Source: Candidatus Nomurabacteria bacterium (GTDB taxonomy: Bacteria > Patescibacteriota > Minisyncoccia > Phycocordibacterales > UBA9973). Taken from it: 64,000 nucleotides of DNA. The notes beneath the pieces are model-generated. The model worked only from the letters and a program-made list of their open reading frames with translations. It did not search any database and had not been told where the DNA came from. The stretch covers positions 507,524 to 571,523 of the forward strand of contig CP064973.1 in the NCBI GenBank assembly GCA_016699365.1, read 5' to 3'. The position numbers were made by a program, and so were the translations under genes. This document shows, one piece after another, positions 16,587-30,981 of this stretch. Within the stretch, counting starts at the first letter, position 1, and the number at the start of each line of letters is the position of its first letter.

Positions 16587-19139
16587 ATGTTTTTTCGTCG
16601 TAGAAGTAAGACGAGTCATATAAAAAATACATGGATAGAAGATGTCACGATTTCTGGTAAATCTAAGGTTCTTTCTCTGCGACCAACCTATTTTGTAATA
16701 AGAATTGATAAACAAAAAATACGCGAACTTTTCAGTAAGGATAAATATTTTATAGGTTATGGTTTGGTTGTATTGATGGTGCTAGCGGTTTCATCTCTAT
16801 CAAATCCTACAAAAGCTGATGTTGTAAATTTCTATCCCACAAGCTGTCTTGGTGGTTGGGAGAATCCTGAAAATGCAACAGGTGCTCCGAGTTTGGAGAA
16901 AGATGACAGTATAGAATCTTTCAATGACGAGAACTCAGCTCGTATGCGTGGCACATCAGATATATTCTGCGGTGGGTTTGAAGGAGAGATACCTCCAGAA
17001 GCAATCGCCAATTCTTTTTCTTTGAGTTTTAGAATTTCTGTCGACGATGGATCTGTTGAACATAGTAAGACAGAGATACTTGTTGTTCCAGAAACTGAAG
17101 ATGTCCGAGTTGGTACTGACAATATAGAAATAATAGAAATAGAAAATTCAAATGACGGGACTCAATCAACTGATTCTTTAGAAAGTGATGTTTTAGATAG
17201 TGGAGTAGATTCTACAGATACTGTTCAATCAGAAGAAGCTCCATCAGTTGCTCCAGAAGTTATTGAGCAAGTAATTGAAGTCGAAGCTCCGGCAGAAGAA
17301 TCTCCAGAGCCAGTAAGTTCACCGGAGCCAGAACCTAGTCCCGCAGAGCCTGCTGGTGAATCTGCATTTCTTAGATTCTTTACAAAGAGAGTGCATGCTG
17401 AAGGTGAAGATATATCAAGTGTGGAAACAGCAGAACCACAAATAGTTGAGGTGGTAGTAGATGAACCTGTTGTGATAGAAGAAATTCCAGAACCACAATC
17501 TGAAAACCTAGAGCAAGCAGATACTAGTTCTGGTGAAGTTATAAATATAGACAGATCTTCATCTGAAAACGGTGAAGCCGATTTGGATAGTACTCCAAAT
17601 GAAGATTCAGAAAATATTGCAGAGGTTATACCAAACGATGCAATATTGAAAATTGTTTATACATTGGATGGAGAAAAGTGGGTGTCACTCGGATATGTTT
17701 CTATGAGTTCTTGGAAAGATTTGAATTTTAGTCTGCCTCTGAAGGAATGGTCAGATGTAAATAGTTTTCAAATAAAATTGGAACAAGTTTCTAGTTTCGA
17801 TGAAAAGCCTGTTGTGTTTTTGGATTCAGTTATTCTTTCAGCTGAATACGACGGACTAGGAGAAGATCCTATAAGACAGCCAGATTTTGGTACAGATGTA
17901 ATCTTGTCTGATAAAACAATTGACGATATAAGAGTAATAAAGATTTTACGCAACGATATACCGATGATTTGGTATACAAAGATTCCACCAGCAGTAGAGC
18001 TTCCAGAAGGTGAGATAATAGAAGAACAGGGTGGTGTAGAAATTATAGTTGTAACAGAAGATGAAACTGAGGGGTCTCTCGATAACCCAGTAGAAGTAGA
18101 GGTTGTAGCTCCAGTAGAAGAGATAGTAGAACCAGAAGTAGTGGAAACAATAGAGGAGCCTGTTGTCGAAACTTTGCCAGTAGATCTGGCTCCGGAAAAT
18201 ACAGAAATAGTTCCATCAGAGAATACAGAAATTATTTCATTTGGTAGAAAAATCAAAAATCTTTTTGGTGTACTGCAAGTATATGCTGAAGGTGAAGATG
18301 GTGGTGGTGAATCTTCAGGAGGTAGTGGTGGCGAGAGTGGTGGCGGAGAAAGCTCTTCTAGCGGAGGAGATTCATCTTCTTCGGCAGAGAGTAGTTCAAG
18401 TACTTCAGAATCTTCTGCGGGTGACGAAGCTTCTTCAGCTAGTAGTACAAGCGACGGAAGTGAAGCTGGTTCTTCTGAGAATTCTATTTCTGATAGTACT
18501 GTAGACAATCCTGATTCATCAGAAAATTCTGTAGTATCAGAAGACAATTCTGAAACATTAAATTCAGATGCAATTATAGAAAATCAAGTAAATGATTCAA
18601 TAAACAAAGTTCTAGATGATATAAATATTGGTGAGAGTGGTAATATTATTATCGACACTATTCATAAATATGATAATAGTGATGTTAAAATCACAGAGGA
18701 TCTTATTTTGAGTACAACAGAAGCTATTGTCCCAGGACTTACTCCTATTTCATATACAGAAGAACAAATCATGAACGAGAGAGCTAGTGGAACAGAGTGG
18801 AATTTGGTTGCGTTGGGATCAAGCGTAGATGTTGCGACCACTGTCGACGTGAGTGGAGGTATAATCTTTTGGTTTGCTCCGGGCAATACTGCAATTTATC
18901 AATACAACACAGCTTCAGGGGGAATTTCTTCTGAAGGAATTAGTTCCACAGTTGATTCTGAGATAAAATATTTAGAACCAAACGGTGATATTTCAGAGAT
19001 ATCTGTAGACGCACAGAATTCCGAACTCATCACACCCAAAGAAGAAAAAGATACTTTAGAAATAGAGTCTATATCGAATTCAGAAAGCATAAAAGAAGAG
19101 GGTGTGGAAGATATTACGACAAAGGAAAAAATTGATTAA
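16587..19139 (+). CDS. large acidic low-complexity surface protein (850 aa) with N-terminal TM anchor
   Basis: A TM helix (GYGLVVLMVLAVSSL), then Glu/Ser/Pro/Val-rich tracts (PEPVSSPEPEPSPAEPAGE; GGGESSGGSGGESGGGESSSSGGDSSSSAESSSS). A ...AEGED motif preceded by a hydrophobic stretch occurs twice. Confidence 0.6.
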   Translation: MFFRRRSKTSHIKNTWIEDVTISGKSKVLSLRPTYFVIRIDKQKIRELFSKDKYFIGYGLVVLMVLAVSSLSNPTKADVVNFYPTSCLGGWENPENATGAPSLEKDDSIESFNDENSARMRGTSDIFCGGFEGEIPPEAIANSFSLSFRISVDDGSVEHSKTEILVVPETEDVRVGTDNIEIIEIENSNDGTQSTDSLESDVLDSGVDSTDTVQSEEAPSVAPEVIEQVIEVEAPAEESPEPVSSPEPEPSPAEPAGESAFLRFFTKRVHAEGEDISSVETAEPQIVEVVVDEPVVIEEIPEPQSENLEQADTSSGEVINIDRSSSENGEADLDSTPNEDSENIAEVIPNDAILKIVYTLDGEKWVSLGYVSMSSWKDLNFSLPLKEWSDVNSFQIKLEQVSSFDEKPVVFLDSVILSAEYDGLGEDPIRQPDFGTDVILSDKTIDDIRVIKILRNDIPMIWYTKIPPAVELPEGEIIEEQGGVEIIVVTEDETEGSLDNPVEVEVVAPVEEIVEPEVVETIEEPVVETLPVDLAPENTEIVPSENTEIISFGRKIKNLFGVLQVYAEGEDGGGESSGGSGGESGGGESSSSGGDSSSSAESSSSTSESSAGDEASSASSTSDGSEAGSSENSISDSTVDNPDSSENSVVSEDNSETLNSDAIIENQVNDSINKVLDDINIGESGNIIIDTIHKYDNSDVKITEDLILSTTEAIVPGLTPISYTEEQIMNERASGTEWNLVALGSSVDVATTVDVSGGIIFWFAPGNTAIYQYNTASGGISSEGISSTVDSEIKYLEPNGDISEISVDAQNSELITPKEEKDTLEIESISNSESIKEEGVEDITTKEKID

Positions 19140-19141
19140 AA

Positions 19142-22100
19142 ATGAAATTTTTATATCTTAAAACAAAAATAAATAAAATTTCAAATTTTTTTAATTTTAA
19201 AAAAGTTCTAACCATTTTTTTAATTGTGGCATTTTTATTTAGTGGTTTTACAGACATGGTTCTGATGCGTGTTTTAGACAAAAGATCAGAAGAGCCTGTT
19301 GTAAAAAATGCAGAAGCGGCCACCTATCAATTTTTCCCAACTGACGTAGTAGTCGAGACAGGCACTGAGCAAAATGTCACATCTGCGACTATTGCTGCAA
19401 CCGAAGGAACAAACTTAGGTTCTCATCAAGGAATGATGACAAACGATGGTTTCCATTGGCAAGTTGCTGGTGCAGGTGCATCTGGTATCTCTATGGTTGT
19501 TACCATAGGTGGAGTCGGGCTAAACGGTGCAAACAAACTCGATATCGGTACAGAGATAGATATGGATGCTACAGCGTACAGTATGCTTTTTCAGATATGC
19601 GACTTTACTTCAACAACCAACGTAGACAACGCAGCCGATGCAAACTGTACTGGAGGCGGGTGGCGTACAATAAACACTCAGAATGCATCAAACGCCGATG
19701 TAGCATATACGGATACTGCAAACGATCAGTTGCGATGGCAACTTTACAATGGTGTTTTTTCCAACGGAACATCTGATGCCGGTACACCTATCGATACACC
19801 ACTTACGTACTTCGTGAATGGAAGTAATGAAATGAAATTTCGGTACTACTCTACAACAAGCTCTACTTCTGTTGTATCTATAGACTATCTAACTGCATTT
19901 GCATATATAGACTCTGTGTACTATGCAGCAGACTATGTAGATCAGGTTTCTGGTGGAGGTACGGAGACAGGGGTGTATGTAAACTCTGTTCCGATAGTTA
20001 ACAACGCTACCGCATGGACTTCTGCAAGTACAAACGACAACAACCGTGTAGGAGTATCTGCAACTTCGCAGGTCGTAGACTTCTATTTGTCATATCAAAA
20101 TATCAAACAGTATACGGGGATGAATACCATACTCGTCGGTTCTTCGGTGAACTGTACTGGTGCAACAACTATCCGACAGTATTTGTACAACTTTACTGAT
20201 AGCGCATGGGATCAGATAGGTTCGGATGTTTCGTGTACGACATCGGACGTAGATAGATATTTTGCGCACAACTCGGCAGTTGATGGAGGATTTGTATTCA
20301 ATGACTACATATCAGCAGGTGAGATGCGCGTTCGATGGGCGTCGACTGCGTCTGTGACAAACGGTATTTTTGTTGACTGGCAATATGTAATGCTCGGTTC
20401 TGTAAATACAGATTCATCTCTGTGTGAGATATCTTTTGGTACAGGTACTGCAACAAACTGCACAAACACTCGAACTCTCAATACTCTTGCTGCAGCATCT
20501 ACTTTTGATATCGCAGGTGAAGACGAAGCTGCTGCTATGGGAACAGGAGAAGCAAATTCATTTTATCCAAACGATACCGATCAGGATACTACTGTTGAAG
20601 AGGGTGTATCTGCAAATATATCTGTACCGGTAACAGTTCCTGCCAATGCACAAGTGGTTGGTATAAACTGGTCTAGTCGTACGACTTCGCGCAGCACTGG
20701 AACTACGAGAGTTACAAATAGTTTGAGGGATTACTCAGGACTAACTTCTACTACTGGTGGATGGACGGATGTCGGAGCTGCAGTAAACGCAACAACACAG
20801 ACTTATCAAGACAATGTTATAACAGCAGCTGTTTTATCATATGGGCAACAAATAAATCCAGAGGACTATGTCGACACAGTGAACGGTCGTATGAATATGC
20901 GTCTACGTACGTCTACGTCAGGAGCGACAACGGACAACTCTACAACAGCATGGGATTTTGCAATGATGTCTATTCAATGGATAGAGGATTCTAGTAATCC
21001 TACAGTTACGTACCAGTTTACACCTACCGGACAAACTCTGGTTACAGGTACAGATACAACAGCAAATAATACTATTGCCGCGGGAGCAAACGGCGCAAAT
21101 ACTGGCTCATGGAAAGGTACACTTGCTGATGACAATCGTCACTGGGAGCTTACTGGAACAGCGAGTGGTATAGATGTAGAGCTTTTCATGAACGGGGTAA
21201 AGCTCAATGGGGCAAACACTATAATAGTACAGTCTGAAATAGACGTAGATGCTACAGCTCCGACATTGCTTGTACAGATATGTGATTGGGTTTCAACTAC
21301 AAGCGTAGACCATGCTGCAGATTCAAATTGTACAGGAGGAGGGTGGAGGACACTCAACTCTCGTGATGCGGTAATAACACCAACTACAGCAACTGCATAT
21401 ACATGGAACGTCTATGACGGTAAGTGGTCCAACGGATCCAATACTCCAGTTTCTACTCCACTTACGAACTTTGTTACAACCGACTCAAACAAGCGCGTTT
21501 TGGTCAGGTACTATTCAACAACAAACGCTACAACAGCCGGTAACTTCGCGATAGATTATTTGCGTATATATCCTGTGATTAATCCTGTCTATGAACCAGG
21601 TGACGCAACAGCACTTACAAACTCTTTTACTGGAGATTACACAAATGCAAATACAGTCACACAAGGAGGTGCAGACAATACGGACCTTCAGTGTCTCGGT
21701 ACAACCGGTGGGCCAGACTGTTATTTGTCATTTTTCAATGTCAAAACGTATCCGAGTATGAATACAATTCTTGCTCGTTCAGAGTTCGCGTGTACAGCAA
21801 CAACAGAAGCTCCTGAAATAAAAATGGCACTAAGGAATTTTACAACTGGTGCATGGGACGACATAACGACAGAAATACCAAACTGTTCAACAACGGACAC
21901 AGTACGTATCGGTGCCAAAAACAATATTACGGTCAGTGACTATGTTTCAAATGGTGAAGTGCGCTTGCGATATTATAGATCATCTGGAGCTGGTACTGGA
22001 GCAATCCAGATAGACTATTCATATATAATGCTTGGAACTACGAATTCGGATTCTGCTGGGGCCTATTGTTTCATATCATTTGGGACAAACTCAGCAAATG

Positions 22101-23149
22101 ATTGTACTGCAACTCGTACAATAGATATGAATGGTTCTACAAACAACGGTACGACATGGCAGATACTTGCAGAAGATGAGTCGACAAACAGAGGAGCAGG
22201 AGAGGCGAATGACTTCTATTCCTTTGATGTAGATATGAACGCGACAGCTTCTCAGGAGGGGTCGGCCTCGCATACCAAATTTAGCTTGAGTGGAGAGCCA
22301 GCGTACGGCGCTATAACAGGTATTTTCTTTTCATCTCAACATATGGCTGGTACAGCTGGTACTGTCGCCTTAAATATCGCAGACTATTCTGGATATAACA
22401 CAGCAGCAGTTGCTGCGGGAGGGTTCATTGCTCTCGGAGCGACTGCAACAACGGCACTTGTATATACAGACAACATAACCGTAGGTACAGCTATATCTGG
22501 AGGTGCAGCTGGTTATATGACAAACCCCGATGACTTGGTAAATACCTCAGGTGATGAAGGTTGGTTTAGGTTGCGTACATCGACAGACGGTAGTTCGGCG
22601 TCAAACGCAGTTCGGCAATGGGATTTTGCAATGATGTCTTTGCAGTGGGTGGAGACCGAAGATAGGACTATATCATTTGATATATCAGATACCACTATAG
22701 GATTTGGTCCACTTACAACATCGAATGCTCGCTATGCAACAGGGGATGCAGCTGGTAGCGATACTGAGGCTACAGCCCATACTCTCACAGCGTCTTCAAG
22801 TGCAGCTGGTGGATATACAATAACAGTAGAAGGTCCTACACTAACTAGTGCTGGCGGCACAATAGATGCAATTGGTAGTACGAATACCGCTTCGAGCGCA
22901 GGAACAGAACAGTTTGGAATCAAGGCTACAGTAGCAGGTATTTCATATTATGATGCCGTAGATGATACATATAGTGGTTCTGGTTATGGATACGACGGCA
23001 CTTCTGGTGCGTCAACATTTGCAACACAGTCACAAGGAGATGGATTTACTTCAACTTATTCAGTTGGTTATATTGCCAACATGTCCACAGGAACAGAAAC
23101 AGGTGCGTATTCTACAGATCTAAACTACATAATGACAGGGAACTTCTAA
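19142..23149 (+). CDS. giant Thr/Asn/Ser/Gly-rich surface protein (1335 aa) with N-terminal TM, two ~510-aa internal repeats and a C-terminal domain shared with the next two genes
   Basis: Repeat 1 (~19440-20990) and repeat 2 (~21130-22660) share ICDFTSTTNVDNAADANCTGGGWRTIN / ICDWVSTTSVDHAADSNCTGGGWRTLN and WDFAMMSIQW / WDFAMMSLQW. The C-terminus ...YIANMSTGTETGAYSTDLNYIMTGNF parallels the paralogs. Confidence 0.7.
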   Translation: MKFLYLKTKINKISNFFNFKKVLTIFLIVAFLFSGFTDMVLMRVLDKRSEEPVVKNAEAATYQFFPTDVVVETGTEQNVTSATIAATEGTNLGSHQGMMTNDGFHWQVAGAGASGISMVVTIGGVGLNGANKLDIGTEIDMDATAYSMLFQICDFTSTTNVDNAADANCTGGGWRTINTQNASNADVAYTDTANDQLRWQLYNGVFSNGTSDAGTPIDTPLTYFVNGSNEMKFRYYSTTSSTSVVSIDYLTAFAYIDSVYYAADYVDQVSGGGTETGVYVNSVPIVNNATAWTSASTNDNNRVGVSATSQVVDFYLSYQNIKQYTGMNTILVGSSVNCTGATTIRQYLYNFTDSAWDQIGSDVSCTTSDVDRYFAHNSAVDGGFVFNDYISAGEMRVRWASTASVTNGIFVDWQYVMLGSVNTDSSLCEISFGTGTATNCTNTRTLNTLAAASTFDIAGEDEAAAMGTGEANSFYPNDTDQDTTVEEGVSANISVPVTVPANAQVVGINWSSRTTSRSTGTTRVTNSLRDYSGLTSTTGGWTDVGAAVNATTQTYQDNVITAAVLSYGQQINPEDYVDTVNGRMNMRLRTSTSGATTDNSTTAWDFAMMSIQWIEDSSNPTVTYQFTPTGQTLVTGTDTTANNTIAAGANGANTGSWKGTLADDNRHWELTGTASGIDVELFMNGVKLNGANTIIVQSEIDVDATAPTLLVQICDWVSTTSVDHAADSNCTGGGWRTLNSRDAVITPTTATAYTWNVYDGKWSNGSNTPVSTPLTNFVTTDSNKRVLVRYYSTTNATTAGNFAIDYLRIYPVINPVYEPGDATALTNSFTGDYTNANTVTQGGADNTDLQCLGTTGGPDCYLSFFNVKTYPSMNTILARSEFACTATTEAPEIKMALRNFTTGAWDDITTEIPNCSTTDTVRIGAKNNITVSDYVSNGEVRLRYYRSSGAGTGAIQIDYSYIMLGTTNSDSAGAYCFISFGTNSANDCTATRTIDMNGSTNNGTTWQILAEDESTNRGAGEANDFYSFDVDMNATASQEGSASHTKFSLSGEPAYGAITGIFFSSQHMAGTAGTVALNIADYSGYNTAAVAAGGFIALGATATTALVYTDNITVGTAISGGAAGYMTNPDDLVNTSGDEGWFRLRTSTDGSSASNAVRQWDFAMMSLQWVETEDRTISFDISDTTIGFGPLTTSNARYATGDAAGSDTEATAHTLTASSSAAGGYTITVEGPTLTSAGGTIDAIGSTNTASSAGTEQFGIKATVAGISYYDAVDDTYSGSGYGYDGTSGASTFATQSQGDGFTSTYSVGYIANMSTGTETGAYSTDLNYIMTGNF

Positions 23150-23179
23150 TTTGTTTTTTTGCAAAATATTATTTTGGTA

Positions 23180-23188
23180 TGCTATAAT
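23180..23188 (+). promoter_or_regulatory. extended -10 element TGCTATAAT upstream of the 23216 paralog
   Basis: ggtatgctataatta lies 28 nt before the ATG. Confidence 0.45.
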
Positions 23189-23215
23189 TAAAGTAACTTT
23201 AGAGAACATACTTAT

Positions 23216-24313
23216 ATGATAAAAAAAATCACAAGTTCAATAATGATACTTTCTGTCATCACTGCAAACTTTGTGGGATTTAGTGATACAGCTTTTGCTG
23301 CAAGTGTAACAACTTTCTCTGATACACTTTCTACACTCACAGCCTCAACTGCGGCGAACCACGAAATACTTTTTATAACTCCAACTGGTGTAGAGGCCAA
23401 CAATGACACGATGATTTTTACTTTTACAGGCTTTGATGGTACATCACTAGACGCAATTGCATTTGGAGATGTAGATCTAGCAGAAAGTACAAATGCCAGC
23501 TGTTCAAACCCAGGTACATGGAACGAGAAAACACTTGCTGCCACAGACGCAGCTTCTACATATGGTGTAGCCACAAACTCCACAACACTTCTTTTTGATC
23601 CACCAACAACATCTGGATATATTACAGCTGGTAATTGTATAAGAATCAAAATCGGAACAAATGCTTCTACTGGTGTTGCTGGTACAAACCAGATTACAAA
23701 CGGAGGAGCTGCAACTGCACACTCAATTGCTATATCAGGAAACTTCGCTGACACAGGAACAGCATCTATAGATATTATTGCTGATGATTCTGTTAGCTTA
23801 AGTGCAACAGTTGATTCAGCTATATCTTTTACTGTAGATGATACAACTATAGGTTTTGGAACCTTGGATGCCGCCGCCGCTAGGTGGGCAACAGGTGATG
23901 CAACAGGAACATCTTCTTTGCCAGGAGATACATCAGGTGCACATCAAATGACACTTTCTACAAACGCAGCCTCTGGATATTCAATCACTTACAACGGAGC
24001 AACGCTCACAAGTGGTGCAAATACTATAGACGTAGCTACTATATCTGAAGATGATGATGGAACTCCTGCCTCAGAGCAGTTCGCGATCGGGCTAGACGAC
24101 AATGGTAGTAATGTAACAATAGTTTCAGACTATGATTTAGCTACTACAAACAGTTATAAGTTTGTTGCAGGTACTACTACAACAGTTGCGTCTGAAACTG
24201 CGCCTACTGCCACAGAGACATTTGATGTTCAGTATATTGCGAATATATCTACAGTGACAGAAGCAGGATCATACTCAACAAATGTTACTTGGATAGCAAC
24301 AGGTAACTTTTAG
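23216..24313 (+). CDS. secreted surface protein, paralog A (signal peptide, C-terminal shared domain ending ...TWIATGNF)
   Basis: Signal peptide MIKKITSSIMILSVITANFVGFSDTAFA. The last ~165 aa are near-identical to the 24407 product and homologous to the C-terminus of the giant protein. Confidence 0.7.
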   Translation: MIKKITSSIMILSVITANFVGFSDTAFAASVTTFSDTLSTLTASTAANHEILFITPTGVEANNDTMIFTFTGFDGTSLDAIAFGDVDLAESTNASCSNPGTWNEKTLAATDAASTYGVATNSTTLLFDPPTTSGYITAGNCIRIKIGTNASTGVAGTNQITNGGAATAHSIAISGNFADTGTASIDIIADDSVSLSATVDSAISFTVDDTTIGFGTLDAAAARWATGDATGTSSLPGDTSGAHQMTLSTNAASGYSITYNGATLTSGANTIDVATISEDDDGTPASEQFAIGLDDNGSNVTIVSDYDLATTNSYKFVAGTTTTVASETAPTATETFDVQYIANISTVTEAGSYSTNVTWIATGNF

Positions 24314-24406
24314 AACATGATATCCACAGTGTTGCTATGATATTTTTTGTGTGTTTATATGGTACAATTTTAAAATAGATTATTAAATTATTATCCAGAT
24401 TCAAAT

Positions 24407-25498
24407 ATGATAAAAAAATTTACAAGCTTCCTAGTAATATTCTCTGTAATCGCTACAAACTTTGTAGGATTTGCAGATAAGGCTCTCGCTGCAAGTGTAA
24501 CAACTTTCTCTGATACACTTTCAACACTACAAGCATCGACTGCTGCGAACCACACAATATACTTTGTAACTCCTACAGGAGTAGCCTCTGGAGGCACAGT
24601 CACTCTTACTTTCGATGCAGACTTTACCGGAGTATCTGCAATTGACGATACAGACTTGGACTTCGCAGAAGGTGACTCTGGTACTTGTACTTCAGCTTCA
24701 TATACAGAAGAAACTCTTGTTGCGTCTGGTGCAACTTCTTCACAGTTCAACGCTTCTGCTTCAGGTCAGGTTATTACTTTTGAATCTGGAGGTGCATCAG
24801 CAACAGTAACAGCAGCTCGATGTATTCGTATCAAGATTGGTACAAACGCAACTTCTGGAGTTACTGGTGCTGAGCAAATCTCAAACGGGGCTGCTGCAAA
24901 CGGACACTCAGTTACAATCGGAGGAACTTTTGGTGACTCAGGTACAGCAGCTATAGATATTATTGCTGATGATTCTGTTAACATAACTGCAACAGTTGAT
25001 CCTACTATTACTTTTACAATATCTGACACCACAGTAGGTTTTGGTACACTAACAACAGGCTCTGCTTCTTGGGCTACTGGAGATTTGGCAGGTGTAACAT
25101 CTGTTCCAGGAGATACATCAGGTGCACATGAAATGACAGTTGCTACAAACGCAGCTTCTGGATACTCAATCACTTACAACGGCGCAACACTTACAAGTGG
25201 TGCAAATACTATAGACGTAGCTACTATATCTGAAGATGATGATGGAACTCCTGCCTCAGAGCAGTTTGCTCTAGGAATAGATGACAACGGTGGAAACGTA
25301 ACTATAGTTTCTGATTACGACCTTGCGACTGCAAACAGTTATAAATTCGTCGCAGGTACTACTACAACAGTCGCATCTGAGACTGTTGCTACAGCAACAG
25401 AAACAATAGATGTGCAGTATATTGCCAATGTATCTGGAGTTACAGAAGCTGGTTCATATACAACTAACGTTACTTGGATAGCAACAGGTAACTTCTAA
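24407..25498 (+). CDS. secreted surface protein, paralog B
   Basis: Signal peptide MIKKFTSFLVIFSVIATNFVGFADKALA. It shares 74-nt and 35-nt identical stretches with paralog A. An extended -10 TGCTATGAT sits at ~24338-24346. Confidence 0.7.
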   Translation: MIKKFTSFLVIFSVIATNFVGFADKALAASVTTFSDTLSTLQASTAANHTIYFVTPTGVASGGTVTLTFDADFTGVSAIDDTDLDFAEGDSGTCTSASYTEETLVASGATSSQFNASASGQVITFESGGASATVTAARCIRIKIGTNATSGVTGAEQISNGAAANGHSVTIGGTFGDSGTAAIDIIADDSVNITATVDPTITFTISDTTVGFGTLTTGSASWATGDLAGVTSVPGDTSGAHEMTVATNAASGYSITYNGATLTSGANTIDVATISEDDDGTPASEQFALGIDDNGGNVTIVSDYDLATANSYKFVAGTTTTVASETVATATETIDVQYIANVSGVTEAGSYTTNVTWIATGNF

Positions 25499-25503
25499 AT
25501 CTT

Positions 25504-26544
25504 ATGCTTAAAAGAACATCAATAGTCACACTATTCGTCGCACTATCATTTGTTTCTTTTGGCTTCACTAAAAACGCTCAAGCGCTAACACTTACTCCTG
25601 TAAGAATAGAAGTTAGTGGTGATGCTGGTAGTACTGTAACAAGTGAGATTACGCTTATAAATGACAGAGATACAGAAGAAACATTCTACTCATCATATGC
25701 AAACTTTGAGGCTCAAGGTGAAACAGGAAGTCCAAACTTCGTAGACCCAACAGAAGGTCTTGGAACATGGATAAAGACAGATGAAGTAGTCGTATTAGGT
25801 CCTGGAACAAGTAAGATCATACCTGTCACAATAACAATACCTTCCAATACTGAACCAGGAGGATACTTTGCTGCTGTATTTTTTGGCACAAATAATCCAA
25901 ACCTTGGAGACGCAGGGAGTGTTTCTATAGGCGCAAAGACTGGAGTCCTAGTACTACTTCGAGTAAATGGTGAAGTAAACGAGCAAGGTGGAATACTAGA
26001 ATACGACACAAAAGATCACAAGAGATTTTTCACATCACTGCCTGTTGATTTTTATTACAGATTTCAAAATACAGGAGGAGATAGAGTTAAGCCAGAAGGA
26101 GATATAACAGTGAAGCATTTTCTAGGTTTTGTTCGAGCGAAAGTTCCAGCAAACCTAGTAGAAGGTAACGTTCTACCAAATCAAATAAGAAGATTTGAAG
26201 CTTCATGGCAGAGTAAGAACGGCAATAGTGTCGCAGTTGATGAGAATTTGAATTTTATTGAAAACGTAAAAAATCAATGGGTCAACTTTGCTTTTGGATA
26301 CTACAAAGCAAATATAAGTCTTGTGTATGGAGAAGGAGACAAGATAACAGAATCTTCTGTAGGAATATGGGTTTTTCCATGGCAACTTCTCATAACTATA
26401 CTAGTAGCCCTATTTATAATAAGATTTATTTGGAAGAAAATATCCATTCATCGCAGAAAAGAATTGATGTCTGAGATGCGCGAAGAGCTGATGAAAGAAA
26501 TGAATAGTAAAAATAGCACTGAAAAGACTCATATACAGTTTTAG
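25504..26544 (+). CDS. secreted protein with C-terminal TM anchor and short basic cytoplasmic tail (DUF916/DUF3324-like architecture, tentative)
   Basis: Signal peptide (cleavage near AQA-LT), a beta-rich ectodomain, then a TM (WQLLITILVALFIIRFIW) and KKISIHRRKEL... tail. Confidence 0.55.
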   Translation: MLKRTSIVTLFVALSFVSFGFTKNAQALTLTPVRIEVSGDAGSTVTSEITLINDRDTEETFYSSYANFEAQGETGSPNFVDPTEGLGTWIKTDEVVVLGPGTSKIIPVTITIPSNTEPGGYFAAVFFGTNNPNLGDAGSVSIGAKTGVLVLLRVNGEVNEQGGILEYDTKDHKRFFTSLPVDFYYRFQNTGGDRVKPEGDITVKHFLGFVRAKVPANLVEGNVLPNQIRRFEASWQSKNGNSVAVDENLNFIENVKNQWVNFAFGYYKANISLVYGEGDKITESSVGIWVFPWQLLITILVALFIIRFIWKKISIHRRKELMSEMREELMKEMNSKNSTEKTHIQF

Positions 26545-26559
26545 TATAGGTAAAGGCCG

Positions 26560-27459
26560 ATGTCTTTATTCAATAAAAACAAAAAGCATATTGTAGGCAT
26601 ATTTTTGCTTGGTATGCTTTTTGTTTTTTCTGCTGAAGTATCCAGTGCTGTTGATTTGAGTATATCTGCGCAGGTTGGTGCAGGGGGCGGTGGAGATGTT
26701 GGCGGGGGCGGAGGAGGTGGGGGTGGTGGAGGCGCAAATGATGGGGACTCCACTGTAAACTTTTCTGGATATGCATATCCACTGTCTCAGGTTATAGTAC
26801 TCCGTGACGGTATAGAGGTTGTACAGACTATTGCTGGTCCTGATGCAAAATTTAGTATAAGTATCTCAGATCTCCCAGAAGGTAACTATACTTTTTCTGT
26901 TCTAGCTGAAGATTATCAAGAAAGAAGATCCACTCTTTTTACATTTCCACTATATCTTACTGATGGATTGACTACTACTATATCCGGAATCTTTATTGCT
27001 CCATCTATTGCAATAGATAAAAGCGTAGTAAAGCAAGGAGAACAGATTACAATATTTGGACAATCTACTCCAAATTCTGAAGTTTCTATTAGTGTGAATT
27101 CGTTGAATGAGTTTATATTGAATACTTTTACTGATAGTAGTGGTATCTATCTATCTGTTTTTAATACAAGCTTACTTGAAATAGGTGATCATACTACACG
27201 ATCATATTCAAAGTACTTAGAAGCCACTTCTTCATATTCTAGTACACTTGCTTTTGAAGTTTCAGACAAAGCTGGGGAGGTTTTGGTGTGTGGTACAAAA
27301 GCCGATGTAAGTTCTGATTGTAGAGTAAACCTAGTGGATTTTTCCATGTTGGCTTATTGGTTTGAGAGAGGAACTCCACCTGTGGCGTTTGATTTATCTG
27401 GAGACGGCAAAATTACTTTGATTGATTTTTCTATAATGGCTTATTATTGGACTGGCTAA
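26560..27459 (+). CDS. secreted Gly-rich protein with C-terminal tandem dockerin-like repeats
   Basis: Signal peptide, a poly-Gly tract (GAGGGGDVGGGGGGGGGGGANDGD), and a C-terminus DVSSDCRVNLVDFSMLAYWFE ... DLSGDGKITLIDFSIMAYYWTG, which is two D-x-[SN]-x-D-G-x-[VI]-x-x-x-D-F-x-x-[LM] segments. Confidence 0.6.
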   Translation: MSLFNKNKKHIVGIFLLGMLFVFSAEVSSAVDLSISAQVGAGGGGDVGGGGGGGGGGGANDGDSTVNFSGYAYPLSQVIVLRDGIEVVQTIAGPDAKFSISISDLPEGNYTFSVLAEDYQERRSTLFTFPLYLTDGLTTTISGIFIAPSIAIDKSVVKQGEQITIFGQSTPNSEVSISVNSLNEFILNTFTDSSGIYLSVFNTSLLEIGDHTTRSYSKYLEATSSYSSTLAFEVSDKAGEVLVCGTKADVSSDCRVNLVDFSMLAYWFERGTPPVAFDLSGDGKITLIDFSIMAYYWTG

Positions 27460-27464
27460 AAAAC

Positions 27465-28364
27465 ATGAGAAACAATTATTTTAAAATACTTTTTATATTC
27501 ACCTTGCTTGTATTCACTAACAATATGATATTTGCTAGTGGCTCTGATGTCGTATTCAAATATCCAGAAAATACAACAAAGACAAGTAGTCCATTTTCCT
27601 TGAGTGTCTTATTGGATACATCCGGAGATGATATCAATGCTATTGAAGGCACTCTGTATTATGATGATAATTTTTTTGAACTAGTAGATATTGTTGATGG
27701 TAATAGTGTAGTTACTTCTTGGGTGAAAAAACCAGTAGAAGAAGGAGGGAAAATAACTTTTTCGGGGATCATGGCAGGTGGGTATCTTGGAACAATTGAG
27801 CCGTTGACCAACAATATCGGTCCAGGTGTCTTGTTTGAATTGGTATTATTGCCAAAGATAGAAGGATCTGGGTCTATTACACTTACAGATACAATTGTAT
27901 ATAAAAATGATGGACTAGGTACTTCAAAAAGTATTGCTACAAAAGACATATCAATAGAATCTAACATAAATGGATTTTCAGATTATATCCAAAATGTAGA
28001 CAATATAAGACCATTGGTTTTTTCTCCTATAATTTCAAAAAATCCGGATATGTTTGAGAATAGATATTTTATTGTATTTGATACACAAGATAAAGAATCT
28101 GGTATAGATCATTTTGAAGTAAGAGAAGGTAGGAGAGATTGGGTATTGGCAGAGAGTCCGTATGTCCTACAAGATCAGACATTGAAGAGTCATATACGTG
28201 TTAAGGCAGTAGATAAGGCTGGTAACGAGCGTGTAGTTAACTATGAAGACAGAATAGATTTTCCTATTTCAATTCTTTCTATACCGATTATTATTATCTT
28301 AATCATAATCATTTCTGTATACTTTTGGTACACTAGAAAAATACGTATTTTAAGTGTAAAATAA
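27465..28364 (+). CDS. membrane-anchored protein with cohesin-like beta-sandwich module and C-terminal TM
   Basis: Start at ATG 27465 (MRNNYFKILFIFTLLVFTNNMIFA; the track start 27447 is TTG). Cohesin-like pattern FSLSVLLDTSGDDINAIEGTLYYDDNFFELVDIVDG...GKITFSG...LFELVLLPKIEGSGSITL. C-terminal TM ILSIPIIIILIIIISVYFW. Confidence 0.5.
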   Translation: MRNNYFKILFIFTLLVFTNNMIFASGSDVVFKYPENTTKTSSPFSLSVLLDTSGDDINAIEGTLYYDDNFFELVDIVDGNSVVTSWVKKPVEEGGKITFSGIMAGGYLGTIEPLTNNIGPGVLFELVLLPKIEGSGSITLTDTIVYKNDGLGTSKSIATKDISIESNINGFSDYIQNVDNIRPLVFSPIISKNPDMFENRYFIVFDTQDKESGIDHFEVREGRRDWVLAESPYVLQDQTLKSHIRVKAVDKAGNERVVNYEDRIDFPISILSIPIIIILIIIISVYFWYTRKIRILSVK

Positions 28365-28369
28365 AATAC

Positions 28370-30121
28370 ATGACTCTTCCTTCGTTTAACATAAGAATTT
28401 TTTCTGTAACACTTTTTTTGTGTATATTTTTTATTGTTCCAAAAAATACAAATGCTGCTTCATTTCAAATATCTCCAACTACAGGCAATGTATCAAATTC
28501 AGGATCAATAACTCTCACGGTTAGTCTTGCGACTAGCTCATCTGTTCCAGTAAATGCTTTTTCAGGTAGGTTGAATTTTCCTACAGAATTAGTTTCGAAT
28601 ACAAATATATCTGTTAGTGGTTCAATCGCAAATTTTTGGACAGTGCAACCCTCAGTCTCTTCAGATGGTGTAATAAGATTTGAAGGTATTGTTTTAAATC
28701 CAGGTTTTAGTGGATCTAGTGGTAAGTTGTTTACAGCTACATTCAAGACAGAAGGTACAGGCACAGCAAACTTTAACCTTACTAGTGCGTCTATATTGGC
28801 AAACGATGGACTTGGTACAAATGTTTTGACTGCTACTTTACCTACATCTGTATTTACAATTGGAAACGCAGCCCCAGTGGCCACTACTCCTGCTACGACT
28901 AGCTCCACTCCGATTGCTCCGGAGATAATGTCTTCGTCACACCCAAATCCAAATGGCTGGCATAAAGAGACTGTAGCTGATCTTTATTGGGATCTTCCAG
29001 AAGATGCCAATGGAGTGTCATTTGTTTTAGATAAAAATCCTGGAACCATACCAGCAAAAGTTTCAAAGGGCTTAGTAAGTTCATATAAGTCTGAACCTCT
29101 AGAAGATGGTGTGTGGTACATGCATGTCATGATAAAGAATTCTGTCGGATGGGGAAGCGTTGCTCATTATAGAGTAGGCGTTGATACAGTTGCACCAGAA
29201 TCTGTGAGTATAACTCACGTCCACGAGGAAATTCCTATGGGCACTAGCAAGTTTGATATATCAGCCGAAGATATAACTTCAGGGATTGCTTACTATGAGA
29301 TAAGTTTTGATGCGGGAGATACGGAAATATTTAAAAAATATTCAGAAACTGATTTGTTTGAATCAAAAATCTTGCCACCAAAAAGATATCTTGTGGTTGT
29401 AAATGCATATGACTTTGCTGGAAATACAACTCCAGCCATTATGTATTTTACTGCAATGCCTGTGAATCAGCCGGTGATTACAGAGTACTCAAAAGAATTA
29501 AATAGTGGAGAATATTTAACTCTTTCGGGTACTGGATATGAAAATCAAAACGTAAGAGTTCGTTTTGAAAAAAGTAAAACATCTTTCTTTTATAAAATAT
29601 TTGCCCACACAAGAAGCGCTGCATTAAATGAAGAAGTAACAAAAGTAGACAAGGATGGGAAGTTCTCTTTTAGAAATGACGAATCTTGGAACGCTGGAAT
29701 ATATTATGTAACAGTTCGAAACGAACTATCCAACGGAGCTTTCAGTGAATACACAACTCCTGTTCAAATAACAGTAGAGAGTGGTGCTTTTGTTAGATTC
29801 ATAGAATCCTCTCTAAGATTCTTGATACCTGTCATTCCTTTCTTGCTTGCAATCATACTTATACTTTTTGCAGGATTGTTTATTTTAAGATTTTTCAAAA
29901 AATACAGAAGAATCCTGTCTAAACAAGTAAGAGAAGCTGAGGGTGTGGCCGATGAATCTATGAGATTGATTGACAGTGAAGTCTTGGATGAGATAAATCT
30001 GCTCAAAAAAGTACGCTCAGGTGAACCTCTATCAGAAAGAGAGCAGGCTTTCCTAACTAAACTTCGAGGGGATTTGGGTGTTGCAAATTCTATAATTCAA
30101 AAAGAAATAAAAGATATATAA
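28370..30121 (+). CDS. large surface protein with N-terminal cohesin-like module, Ig/FN3-like middle, and C-terminal TM plus cytoplasmic tail
   Basis: Signal peptide, cohesin-like segment (GSITLTVSLATSSSVPVNAFSGRLNFPTELVSNTNI...GVIRFEGIVLNPGFSGSSGKLFTATFKTEGTGTANFNL), a TM (FLIPVIPFLLAIILILFAGLFIL), then a charged tail. Confidence 0.5.
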   Translation: MTLPSFNIRIFSVTLFLCIFFIVPKNTNAASFQISPTTGNVSNSGSITLTVSLATSSSVPVNAFSGRLNFPTELVSNTNISVSGSIANFWTVQPSVSSDGVIRFEGIVLNPGFSGSSGKLFTATFKTEGTGTANFNLTSASILANDGLGTNVLTATLPTSVFTIGNAAPVATTPATTSSTPIAPEIMSSSHPNPNGWHKETVADLYWDLPEDANGVSFVLDKNPGTIPAKVSKGLVSSYKSEPLEDGVWYMHVMIKNSVGWGSVAHYRVGVDTVAPESVSITHVHEEIPMGTSKFDISAEDITSGIAYYEISFDAGDTEIFKKYSETDLFESKILPPKRYLVVVNAYDFAGNTTPAIMYFTAMPVNQPVITEYSKELNSGEYLTLSGTGYENQNVRVRFEKSKTSFFYKIFAHTRSAALNEEVTKVDKDGKFSFRNDESWNAGIYYVTVRNELSNGAFSEYTTPVQITVESGAFVRFIESSLRFLIPVIPFLLAIILILFAGLFILRFFKKYRRILSKQVREAEGVADESMRLIDSEVLDEINLLKKVRSGEPLSEREQAFLTKLRGDLGVANSIIQKEIKDI

Positions 30122-30144
30122 AAGAAAATATAATATCTTATAAT

Positions 30145-30981
30145 ATGAATTTTAAAAAAATATTCCTAATCACAATAATACTGTTTTCTTTTTCTAGTCC
30201 AGTGCTGGCCATAGAATCAAATAATACTGGCTTTATATCAGAAAGTGTTTGGTTTTCCGAAGAAGATTTAATCTTGGGGGAAAGTGTAAATATATATACA
30301 GCTTTGTTCAACAATTCCTCTTCTGTACTTGAGGGAAGTGTTACCTTTTTTGACAAAGATGTAGTATTAGGAGTTAAGACTTTTTCTATACCTGAAAAAT
30401 CTGTCAGGGATGTAAAACAATCTTGGATTGTAACATCAGGAGATCATGAGTTGTATGCGAGTCTAAGTATTAAAAAAACTGACATAGAGCTTGGTGAAAA
30501 AATTACAGAACCACTTAAATTCACAATCCAAGCCCCTGTTATTGCAGAAAAAGATTTGGTAGCTGATGAAACCAAAGAATTGCTATCTGATGTAGATAAT
30601 CTACAAGACAAAATAATAGAAAGTATTCCGCCTTCTGTGTCAGAAAAAATATCCGATTCTTTTTCAGGAGTAGAGATTTTTAGAACTGAAACTTCTAGTA
30701 ATATAGAAGCAAAAAAAGACCAGAAACAAGAAATTGTTGATGAGCTTAAGGCCCAGCCAACAAAGGATTCTGTGGATTTGGAAGTTGGTCTTGAAGATGG
30801 AAAGACAAATATTGATATAAAATCAACACCTCTGGATACTCCACTTGCATATGCCGGGTTGTTTTTCTATACAATAGTTAGCTATATATTCAAATCTACA
30901 GTCCTATTTTATGGTTTATGTATAGTTGTAATTTTCTTGATTTTACGTGCTATTTATAGGGCTATACGTAAACGTCCTTAA
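30145..30981 (+). CDS. secreted protein with CARDB/Ig-like N-terminal domain and C-terminal TM anchor
   Basis: Signal peptide MNFKKIFLITIILFSFSSPVLA; CARDB-like pattern (GESVNIYTALFNNSSSVLEGSVTFFDKDVVLGVKTFSIPEKSVRDV...GDHELYASL); C-terminal TM. Confidence 0.45.
   Translation: MNFKKIFLITIILFSFSSPVLAIESNNTGFISESVWFSEEDLILGESVNIYTALFNNSSSVLEGSVTFFDKDVVLGVKTFSIPEKSVRDVKQSWIVTSGDHELYASLSIKKTDIELGEKITEPLKFTIQAPVIAEKDLVADETKELLSDVDNLQDKIIESIPPSVSEKISDSFSGVEIFRTETSSNIEAKKDQKQEIVDELKAQPTKDSVDLEVGLEDGKTNIDIKSTPLDTPLAYAGLFFYTIVSYIFKSTVLFYGLCIVVIFLILRAIYRAIRKRP

Follow-up and report, generated by a model that had tools for sequence, protein, structure and literature searches.

Three adjacent genes in a 64-kb stretch of the genome of Candidatus Nomurabacteria (Parcubacteria group of Patescibacteria), hereafter the window, encode a secreted protein that ends in a dockerin and two membrane-anchored proteins that begin with cohesin modules (Table 1). 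We consider it fairly probable that this trio is a cognate, non-cellulosomal cohesin-dockerin anchor belonging to an operon for a donor-strand pilus of the Pam type, and its most likely role, judging from sequence and gene order, would be to fasten the surface pilus to the membrane of the cell. At the pilus base, the dockerin protein probably serves as the adaptor and would represent a split version of PamR, the proposed filament terminator and anchor of Pam pili (Troman et al. 2026, bioRxiv 10.64898/2026.03.03.709456). All genes from 16587 to 30981 share the + strand and are separated by very short gaps, and the G+C content is ~37% across the window.

The product of the gene at 26560 (the adaptor) ends in a genuine dockerin. 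A first-pass annotation of this DNA had noticed two 22-residue dockerin-like segments at its C-terminus, and these were found as the last residues of the 299-aa product, with the calcium-coordinating loop positions 1, 3, 5, 9 and 12 kept in both repeats (D249/S251/D253/N257/D260 in repeat 1 and D278/S280/D282/T286/D289 in repeat 2). Residues 248-294 matched Pfam Dockerin_1 (PF00404) with 24.3 bits, above the gathering cut-off of 22.9 (E value 3.6e-5). Because single-sequence searches of solved structures were uninformative, returning glycine-linker artefacts only for the adaptor and nothing useful for the cohesin proteins, family profiles were needed. With a profile made from the last 62 residues of 30 adaptor relatives, every match at E<=0.034 was a solved dockerin; there were nine such sequences, led by 2y3n_B (E 1.6e-6). 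The match list includes Clostridium thermocellum CelS and A. cellulolyticus Cel5, and three EF-hand calcium-binding proteins ranked lower (E 0.04-0.07).

The dockerin is also strongly conserved among relatives, with a mean column identity of 70% across the family and the C-terminal consensus GDLNxDCRVNLVDFSIxAYWYKRxxPPxxxDLNGDGKVxLVDFSIMAYYWTG. Positions 1, 3, 5 and 12 of repeat 1 were D, N/S/T, D and D in all 57 relatives with parsable repeats, exceptions at the ligand positions of repeat 2 were isolated in the same relatives, and the dockerin formed the exact protein end in 86 of 88. Both repeats share the signature LVDFSI.AY.W, which, speculatively, would allow the dockerin to bind in either orientation or to hold two cohesins simultaneously.

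An AlphaFold2 model of the adaptor (predicted local distance difference test score, pLDDT, 85.6) contained a signal-peptide helix, two beta-sandwich domains and a two-helix calcium-loop dockerin, in keeping with the EF-hand-like fold expected of this module; the dockerin helices span residues 258-266 and 287-295, each preceded by a loop, while residues 34-39 were modelled as a strand with low confidence and the poly-glycine segment 41-58 as disordered. The tandem immunoglobulin (Ig)-like stalk structurally matched tandem Ig/FN3 proteins including RbmA (4be5_A, rank 8). Hydropathy analysis of the adaptor gave no transmembrane segment besides the signal peptide. The protein is 100% identical to the hypothetical protein IPJ63_03040 of Ca. 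Nomurabacteria, and the dockerin protein of a related locus, L007, is 92% identical to it. Between the N-terminal strand and the first Ig domain lies the glycine run AGGGGDVGGGGGGGGGGG, assumed to be a flexible tether; the family consensus has a run of ~9 glycines, although a substantial minority of the relatives, 14 of 33 in loci retrieved through their pilin genes for example, has no run of >=4.

Profile, homology and topology evidence, and for the first also the predicted fold, identified both proteins encoded downstream as membrane-anchored cohesins, which we refer to as the small and the large cohesin. Each has an N-terminal signal peptide, a ~140-aa module and a single C-terminal hydrophobic helix by hydropathy, and a C-terminal hydrophobic segment was present in 172 of the 179 cohesin open reading frames (ORFs) of related loci. 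The earlier description of these genes as cohesin-like N-terminal modules with C-terminal transmembrane anchors thus fits both, although neither passes the Pfam Cohesin (PF00963) cut-off alone: the small cohesin scored 20.5 bits against a cut-off of 24.1 (E 6e-4), and the large cohesin gave no Pfam Cohesin match by itself. Their families do match cohesins. Pfam Cohesin was matched by 13 of 53 relatives of the small cohesin (best E 2.3e-7) and by 24 of 49 orthologues of the large one (best E 8.5e-13), and the small-cohesin family profile retrieved almost exclusively solved cohesins.

An AlphaFold2 model of the small cohesin, built on a 53-sequence alignment, was confident (mean pLDDT 92.8), with the module predicted to form a nine-stranded beta-sandwich of the jelly-roll type; ~47 cohesin modules ranked ahead of anything else in a Foldseek search with this model. 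The N-termini of the large and small cohesins were 29% identical by BLASTP (E 2e-7), hhalign of the two families gave a probability of 100% (E 2.2e-38), and iterated profiles started from either N-terminus converged on the same 179 ORFs. In cohesins, the sheet formed by strands 8-3-6-5 is the dockerin-binding face. The conserved residues of the family (INA, W..P, F.G and NDGxGT) map to strands 3, 5 and 6 and to the loop after strand 8, so that in the model they appear to fall on the expected binding sheet, an indirect indication of dockerin binding. Because its closest relatives are 299 aa long, the small cohesin probably starts at ATG 27465 (299 aa), 6 nt past the dockerin stop codon; a start at TTG 27447 would overlap the dockerin gene by 13 nt.

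The cytoplasmic tail of the large cohesin (29888-30121) is helical, with the consensus E..EAE...F..L...LT.EE...L..AE..I.KEI.DI in 59 relatives, and may couple to something inside the cell; the small cohesin is almost tail-less (median 5 aa across the family). At L072:6871-9471 the two cohesin genes form one ORF of 866 aa, in which the first transmembrane helix continues directly into the second signal peptide; the arrangement is topologically possible and could be a natural fusion or an assembly error. A 246-aa protein at L004:13434-14174, just downstream of the cassette, combines a cohesin module with a C-terminal dockerin-like repeat pair and resembles an adaptor scaffoldin.

Comparative genomics strongly supported the earlier proposal that the dockerin protein pairs with its neighbours and is tethered through them. 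Relatives of the dockerin protein were found in at least 594 species-representative genomes, all of them Patescibacteria-type metagenome-assembled genomes, with at least 900 database matches at ~50% identity and 1066 clusters at 50% identity (E<=1e-30). We fetched 80 loci through the dockerin protein alone, 70 of which were non-redundant with >=3 kb of downstream sequence and were taken as assessable; a second set was fetched separately, through the pilin gene. In all 70 assessable loci the dockerin gene was directly followed by one or more cohesin genes, the median spacing being 3 nt; there were two cohesin genes in 56 of these loci, three in 11 and one in 3. Among the pilin-seeded loci with enough downstream sequence, 28 of 33 had the full order of pilin, chaperone, dockerin protein and cohesins.

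In two 21-kb loci, L109 and L156, the gene at the position of the dockerin protein encodes a product that ends in a transmembrane helix and has no dockerin. These products keep the N-terminal strand, a Cys-rich insert and related Ig-like domains. No cohesin ORF was detected in either locus, even at E<=10. Because the nearest relatives of the two products are different dockerin-bearing proteins (58-59% identity), the exchange happened twice, independently. The coincidence of the swap with the absence of cohesin genes, which the tethering proposal predicts, implies that the dockerin and the membrane-anchored cohesins together stand in for a covalent membrane anchor, and we regard this natural swap, read from sequence, as the strongest evidence that the pair would serve as a non-covalent one.

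A dockerin of this kind might instead bind something else, for instance a glycan or protein on a host surface or a cohesin whose gene lies elsewhere, leaving the adjacent cohesin-like membrane proteins to serve, for example, as an assembly platform or as adhesins. We find this improbable. It would be in keeping with the extra dockerin proteins of a few loci (L070, L004), with the Leu-Val and Leu-Ile at loop positions 10-11 of the repeats in place of the Ser-Thr of C. thermocellum type I dockerins, and with a transposon sequencing study that speculated about glycan binding by a stand-alone dockerin protein of a saccharibacterium (PMC10633639); binding between dockerin and cohesin is, moreover, something that we infer here from sequence. 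It does not readily explain why a cohesin gene follows at near-zero spacing in every assessable locus, why cohesin genes are absent exactly where a transmembrane helix replaces the dockerin in two independent cases, or why the window holds exactly one dockerin and two cohesins, and the strong conservation of the dockerin and the placement of the conserved cohesin residues on the expected binding sheet also speak against it.

The genes upstream of the adaptor are those of a Pam-type pilus, a context that the first-pass annotation did not recognise. In a Pam pilin, a linker strand connects the N-terminal domain to an Ig-like C-terminal domain, which is truncated and is filled by the linker of the neighbouring pilin, and the Pam chaperones PamC and PamD are PapD-like and anchored in the membrane by a C-terminal transmembrane helix (10.64898/2026.03.03.709456). 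The profile scores of the 23216 and 24407 products (Table 1), together with the linker motif V.[VIL][ST]ATV that is conserved in 27 pilins, point to this pilin architecture in both. The 19142 product scored 55.5 bits against the NCBIfam profile CPR_Pam_pilin_C (cut-off 55; residues 1198-1335), with no linker-like motif upstream of this acceptor domain (position-specific scoring matrix score -7.7), and because an acceptor domain lacking a linker is what a tip would have, we read it as the tip subunit. The 25504 product shares the architecture of PamC and PamD, with a signal peptide, a beta-rich ectodomain, a transmembrane helix (26365-26421) and a 40-aa tail, and its sequence gave weak matches to fn3_5 and WxLIP_PGBD. 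In 51 of 87 dockerin-seeded loci, and in all 33 assessable pilin-seeded loci, the gene for this candidate chaperone immediately precedes the dockerin gene.

The adaptor itself begins, just past its signal peptide, with a strand that resembles the donor strand of these pilins. A scoring matrix built from pilin linkers alone (V.[VIL][ST]ATV.) was run on 3817 ORFs, and its best non-pilin matches were the dockerin proteins, always at residues 26-46, with sequences such as VNISATVD, VNITATVN and VNVTATVG; in several loci the adaptor strand is identical to the pilin donor strand. The core motif was present in 28 of 47 loci with a chaperone gene and in 1 of 23 without (Fisher p 5e-6), and in 27 of 36 adaptor-type proteins of the pilin-seeded loci. 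Three of the nine motif-less proteins are not at the dockerin position, and most of the others carry close variants. In the window the strand is LSISAQVG, which keeps the alternating hydrophobic pattern and the S-A core.

In PamR of Ca. Mycosynbacter amalyticus, an N-terminal strand is combined with two FnIII domains and a transmembrane helix; by inserting this strand into the last pilin, PamR is proposed to end the filament and tie it to the membrane (10.64898/2026.03.03.709456). We propose that the adaptor is a split form of PamR because it would provide the strand and the two Ig-like domains while leaving the membrane helix to other proteins. An adaptor with a donor strand and no acceptor domain would sit at the cell-proximal end of the filament. 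The 26560 product would be exported via its signal peptide, having no membrane segment of its own, and its dockerin, with two symmetric calcium-loop/helix repeats, would plug into the cohesins on the two single-pass membrane proteins encoded next to it, one dockerin engaging one or both cohesins; this contact would keep the adaptor at the outer face of the cytoplasmic membrane. From its other end, formed by the short beta-strand, the poly-glycine linker and the stalk of two Ig-like domains, the strand, a copy of the inter-domain donor strand of Pam pilins, would insert into the C-terminal domain that the last pilin leaves open. With no acceptor domain on the adaptor, this insertion would end pilus growth and tie the filament to the membrane, giving a chain that may run from the tip adhesin (19142) through the pilins (23216 and 24407) to the adaptor and the cohesins.

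The pair could also be a real membrane anchor with no mechanical link to the pilus, that is, a general stalk for surface display in which the strand-like motif would mark the protein for processing or for recognition by a chaperone, or would pack as a strand on the adaptor's own Ig domain. We judge this unlikely, if less so than binding to another partner. In its favour, the AlphaFold2 monomer has a low-confidence strand at residues 34-39, the window's own strand matches the pilin linker weakly, and some dockerin loci, described below, have an FN3-like adaptor head and no pilus genes. A display stalk accounts poorly for a motif that is found at one fixed position in nearly all pilus-linked loci and hardly ever outside them (the counts given above), let alone for its identity to the pilin donor strand in several of them; the fixed order of tip, pilin, chaperone, adaptor and cohesins and the parallel between the architectures of the adaptor and PamR likewise favour a pilus-base adaptor.

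Several observations weigh against a pilus anchor built from this pair. The pilin and chaperone genes are missing from 21 of 86 dockerin-bearing loci (about a quarter), and the window's own strand scores poorly against the pilin matrix (5.6 bits, a value that 4 of 3734 other 8-mers also reach), which both weakens the link to the pilus and means that the donor-strand argument is carried by relatives. The putative chaperone assignment of the 25504 product comes from its architecture and position. The swap was found at just two loci, the dockerin was present in 181 of 184 retrieved homologues, and a search for further transmembrane-helix variants seeded with the L109 protein returned only that protein itself. 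Finally, pairwise distances of dockerins and cohesins across 72 loci were correlated weakly and no more strongly than controls (Spearman 0.23-0.41); we consider this comparison of pairwise identities uninformative, since it says nothing either way.

Because about a quarter of the loci lack pilin and chaperone genes and carry an FN3-headed adaptor, the anchor appears to be modular and not exclusive to pili. A broader reading, which we hold tentatively and rate somewhat below even, is that in Parcubacteria-type Patescibacteria a dedicated cohesin-dockerin socket is a universal non-covalent membrane anchor for surface appendages. One conserved adaptor, made of the poly-glycine linker, two Ig domains and the dockerin, would carry an exchangeable head: a pilin donor-strand head would terminate and anchor Pam-type pili, and an FN3 head would hold giant surface proteins. 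Both paralogous cohesin membrane proteins may engage the symmetric dockerin, and the conserved cytoplasmic tail of the large cohesin may connect the appendage with something inside the cell. The pilus-less variant was seen at L018:3-9296, L022:301-6865, L057:102-7887 and ~18 other loci. There the cassette opens with a giant protein of 1000-2500 aa that has a low-complexity tail, together with a conserved ~135-aa protein with an N-terminal transmembrane helix, followed by a longer adaptor (~440 aa) with an FN3-like head before the poly-glycine, and then two or three cohesins.

Table 1. Features of the anchor cassette and neighbouring genes (positions in the window)
Feature	Position	Strand	Remarks
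Probable pilus tip adhesin, 1335 aa	19142..23149	+	large N-terminal region; C-terminal Pam pilin acceptor domain; no donor-strand linker
Pam-type pilin	23216..24313	+	N-terminal domain, linker, C-terminal domain; CPR_Pam_pilin_C 82.3 bits (cut-off 55)
Donor-strand linker of first pilin	23783-23821	+	DDSVSLSATVDSA
Second Pam-type pilin	24407..25498	+	CPR_Pam_pilin_C 75.2 bits (cut-off 55)
Donor-strand linker of second pilin	24968-25006	+	DDSVNITATVDPT
Candidate membrane-anchored pilus chaperone, 346 aa	25504..26544	+	from hydropathy and position
Secreted dockerin adaptor, 299 aa	26560..27459	+	Pfam Dockerin_1 above cut-off
Adaptor: signal peptide	26560-26649	+
Adaptor: donor-strand-like peptide	26650-26679	+	VDLSISAQVG
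Adaptor: poly-glycine linker	26680-26733	+
Adaptor: Ig-like domain 1	26746-26997	+
Adaptor: Ig-like domain 2	27007-27267	+
Adaptor: dockerin	27304-27456	+
Dockerin repeat 1	27304..27369	+	DVSSDCRVNLVDFSMLAYWFER; calcium loop and helix
Dockerin repeat 2	27391..27456	+	DLSGDGKITLIDFSIMAYYWTG; exact C-terminus of the protein, stop codon directly after
Small cohesin protein	27447..28364	+	likely true start ATG 27465
Small cohesin: cohesin module	27537-27971	+
Small cohesin: Ig/FN3-like middle domain	27999-28256	+
Small cohesin: transmembrane helix	28266-28322	+	followed by 13-aa basic tail
Large cohesin protein	28370..30121	+	cohesin by family membership
Large cohesin: cohesin module	28454-28876	+
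Large cohesin: Ig-like domains	28877-29830	+
Large cohesin: transmembrane helix	29831-29887	+
Large cohesin: conserved cytoplasmic tail	29888-30118	+	about 75-77 aa
278-aa protein	30145..30981	+	signal peptide and C-terminal transmembrane helix; membership in the system uncertain

Ahead of the tip gene lies a gene (16587-19139) whose 850-aa product has a membrane segment at its N-terminus and long low-complexity regions that are acidic and rich in Ser/Glu; relatives occupy the equivalent position in 11 loci. The product of the gene at 30145 is restricted to close relatives (5 loci) and gave no significant family match in Pfam and NCBIfam profile searches.

The pilus genes themselves yielded further observations. 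All three Pam-domain proteins end in TGNF (WIATGNF or YIMTGNF; 24296-24313, 25481-25498 and 23132-23149), an end that is conserved in the pilin alignment and that, used as a search pattern, recovered 255 metagenome relatives. Anchoring of the pilins by a sortase was considered and rejected, because their TGNF ends show neither an LPXTG motif nor a hydrophobic tail. The chaperone-candidate family weakly matched a WxL-interacting protein of Enterococcus faecium (PDB 9i25/9i1y; E 0.011), Pfam WxLIP_PGBD was matched by 7 of 36 family members (best E 3.9e-6), and both kinds of protein place two beta domains between a signal peptide and a C-terminal transmembrane helix; there may be a distant link between the Pam "chaperones" and the WxL loci of Firmicutes. 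A second pair of pilin and chaperone genes follows the cohesin genes in L090, L091, L095, L097 and L098 (for example, L097:9977-12100), placing pilus genes on both sides of the anchor cassette. A third arrangement of Pam-type loci is found at L107:2291-7668 and L161:10001-15050, with three chaperone-like paralogues and neither a dockerin adaptor nor cohesins.

The modules described here are ordinary members of the dockerin and cohesin families, and a few relatives are already labelled "cohesin domain-containing" or "dockerin type I repeat-containing" by NCBI. Full-text literature searches found no paper linking cohesin-dockerin pairs to surface structures of Patescibacteria or to pilus anchoring, and the Pam preprint (10.64898/2026.03.03.709456) never mentions a cohesin or dockerin. 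What appears to be new is the cassette of three genes in fixed order, how widely it occurs in the phylum, its location in a donor-strand pilus operon and its equivalence to a transmembrane anchor. For Pam pili, first described in 2026, the proposed means of attachment to a cell with neither an outer membrane nor a sortase is PamR's own transmembrane helix; our data suggest that much of the phylum, represented by at least 594 species genomes, relies on a cohesin-dockerin joint in its place. If so, cohesin-dockerin pairs would have a structural role unrelated to polysaccharide breakdown, and a function would be assigned to thousands of "hypothetical proteins" from uncultured ultra-small bacteria. 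A joint of this non-covalent, calcium-dependent kind could be releasable, and the pair may offer protein engineering a compact, orthogonal cohesin-dockerin set. With three small soluble modules, the pair is directly testable, and it should interest specialists in the biology of the candidate phyla radiation and in cohesin-dockerin systems.

PamR is among the closest known systems. Like PamR, the adaptor is encoded in a pilus operon and has an N-terminal beta-strand followed by two tandem Ig/FnIII domains of the RbmA-like kind, RbmA being the structural relative reported for PamR (10.64898/2026.03.03.709456); the L109 and L156 variants share the PamR architecture including the transmembrane helix. 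The likeness is one of architecture and position. The adaptor differs in having a dockerin, not a transmembrane helix, so that attachment would pass to two separate cohesin proteins, and we propose that it works like PamR, with this replacement setting its architecture apart from that of PamR. Pam pilins have been reported mainly in Saccharimonadia and Microgenomatia, and the pili appear easily untethered (10.64898/2026.03.03.709456). The essential dockerin protein SEML1_0315 of Southlakia epibionticum was set aside as a different system, being a stand-alone protein of 927 aa with no cohesin context.

Cohesin-dockerin pairs outside cellulosomes are known from the glycoside-hydrolase/toxin complexes of Clostridium perfringens (cohesins 2vo8, 2jh2 and 2w1n) and from Archaeoglobus fulgidus (2xdh). 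In contrast with those, the window's cohesins are carried by single-pass membrane proteins and its dockerin by an enzyme-free Ig-like stalk, and the trio is a fixed cassette, conserved across the phylum, beside pilus genes. Among cellulosomal comparators (OlpA and OlpC of C. thermocellum, 3ul4 and 4dh2; the Cel48 dockerin of Bacteroides cellulosolvens, 2y3n), the type I dockerins share the two 22-residue calcium-loop/helix repeats with their internal symmetry, and anchoring scaffoldins likewise use a cohesin to attach a secreted protein to the cell. Since these domain families are the ones that define cellulosomes, a cellulosome-like system assembling polysaccharide-degrading enzymes on the cell surface has to be weighed, and we find it scarcely credible. 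The sole dockerin protein has Ig-like domains with no catalytic or carbohydrate-binding module, the operon encodes no glycoside hydrolase, and each cohesin protein carries a single cohesin besides its transmembrane helix, unlike a multi-cohesin scaffoldin; on these grounds a cellulosome identity was rejected. The window's anchor is also a transmembrane helix where anchoring scaffoldins use surface-layer homology (SLH) repeats or a sortase, and its dockerin differs from cellulosomal ones at loop positions 10-11, as noted above.

Chaperone-usher pili of the Pap/Fim type stop growing when a terminator such as PapH is added, which donates a strand and is unable to accept one. The adaptor would end the filament by the same logic in a cell with no outer membrane or usher. 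Here the chaperone-like protein is membrane-anchored, and the terminator, in contrast to that of chaperone-usher pili, would be held in place by a cohesin-dockerin contact.

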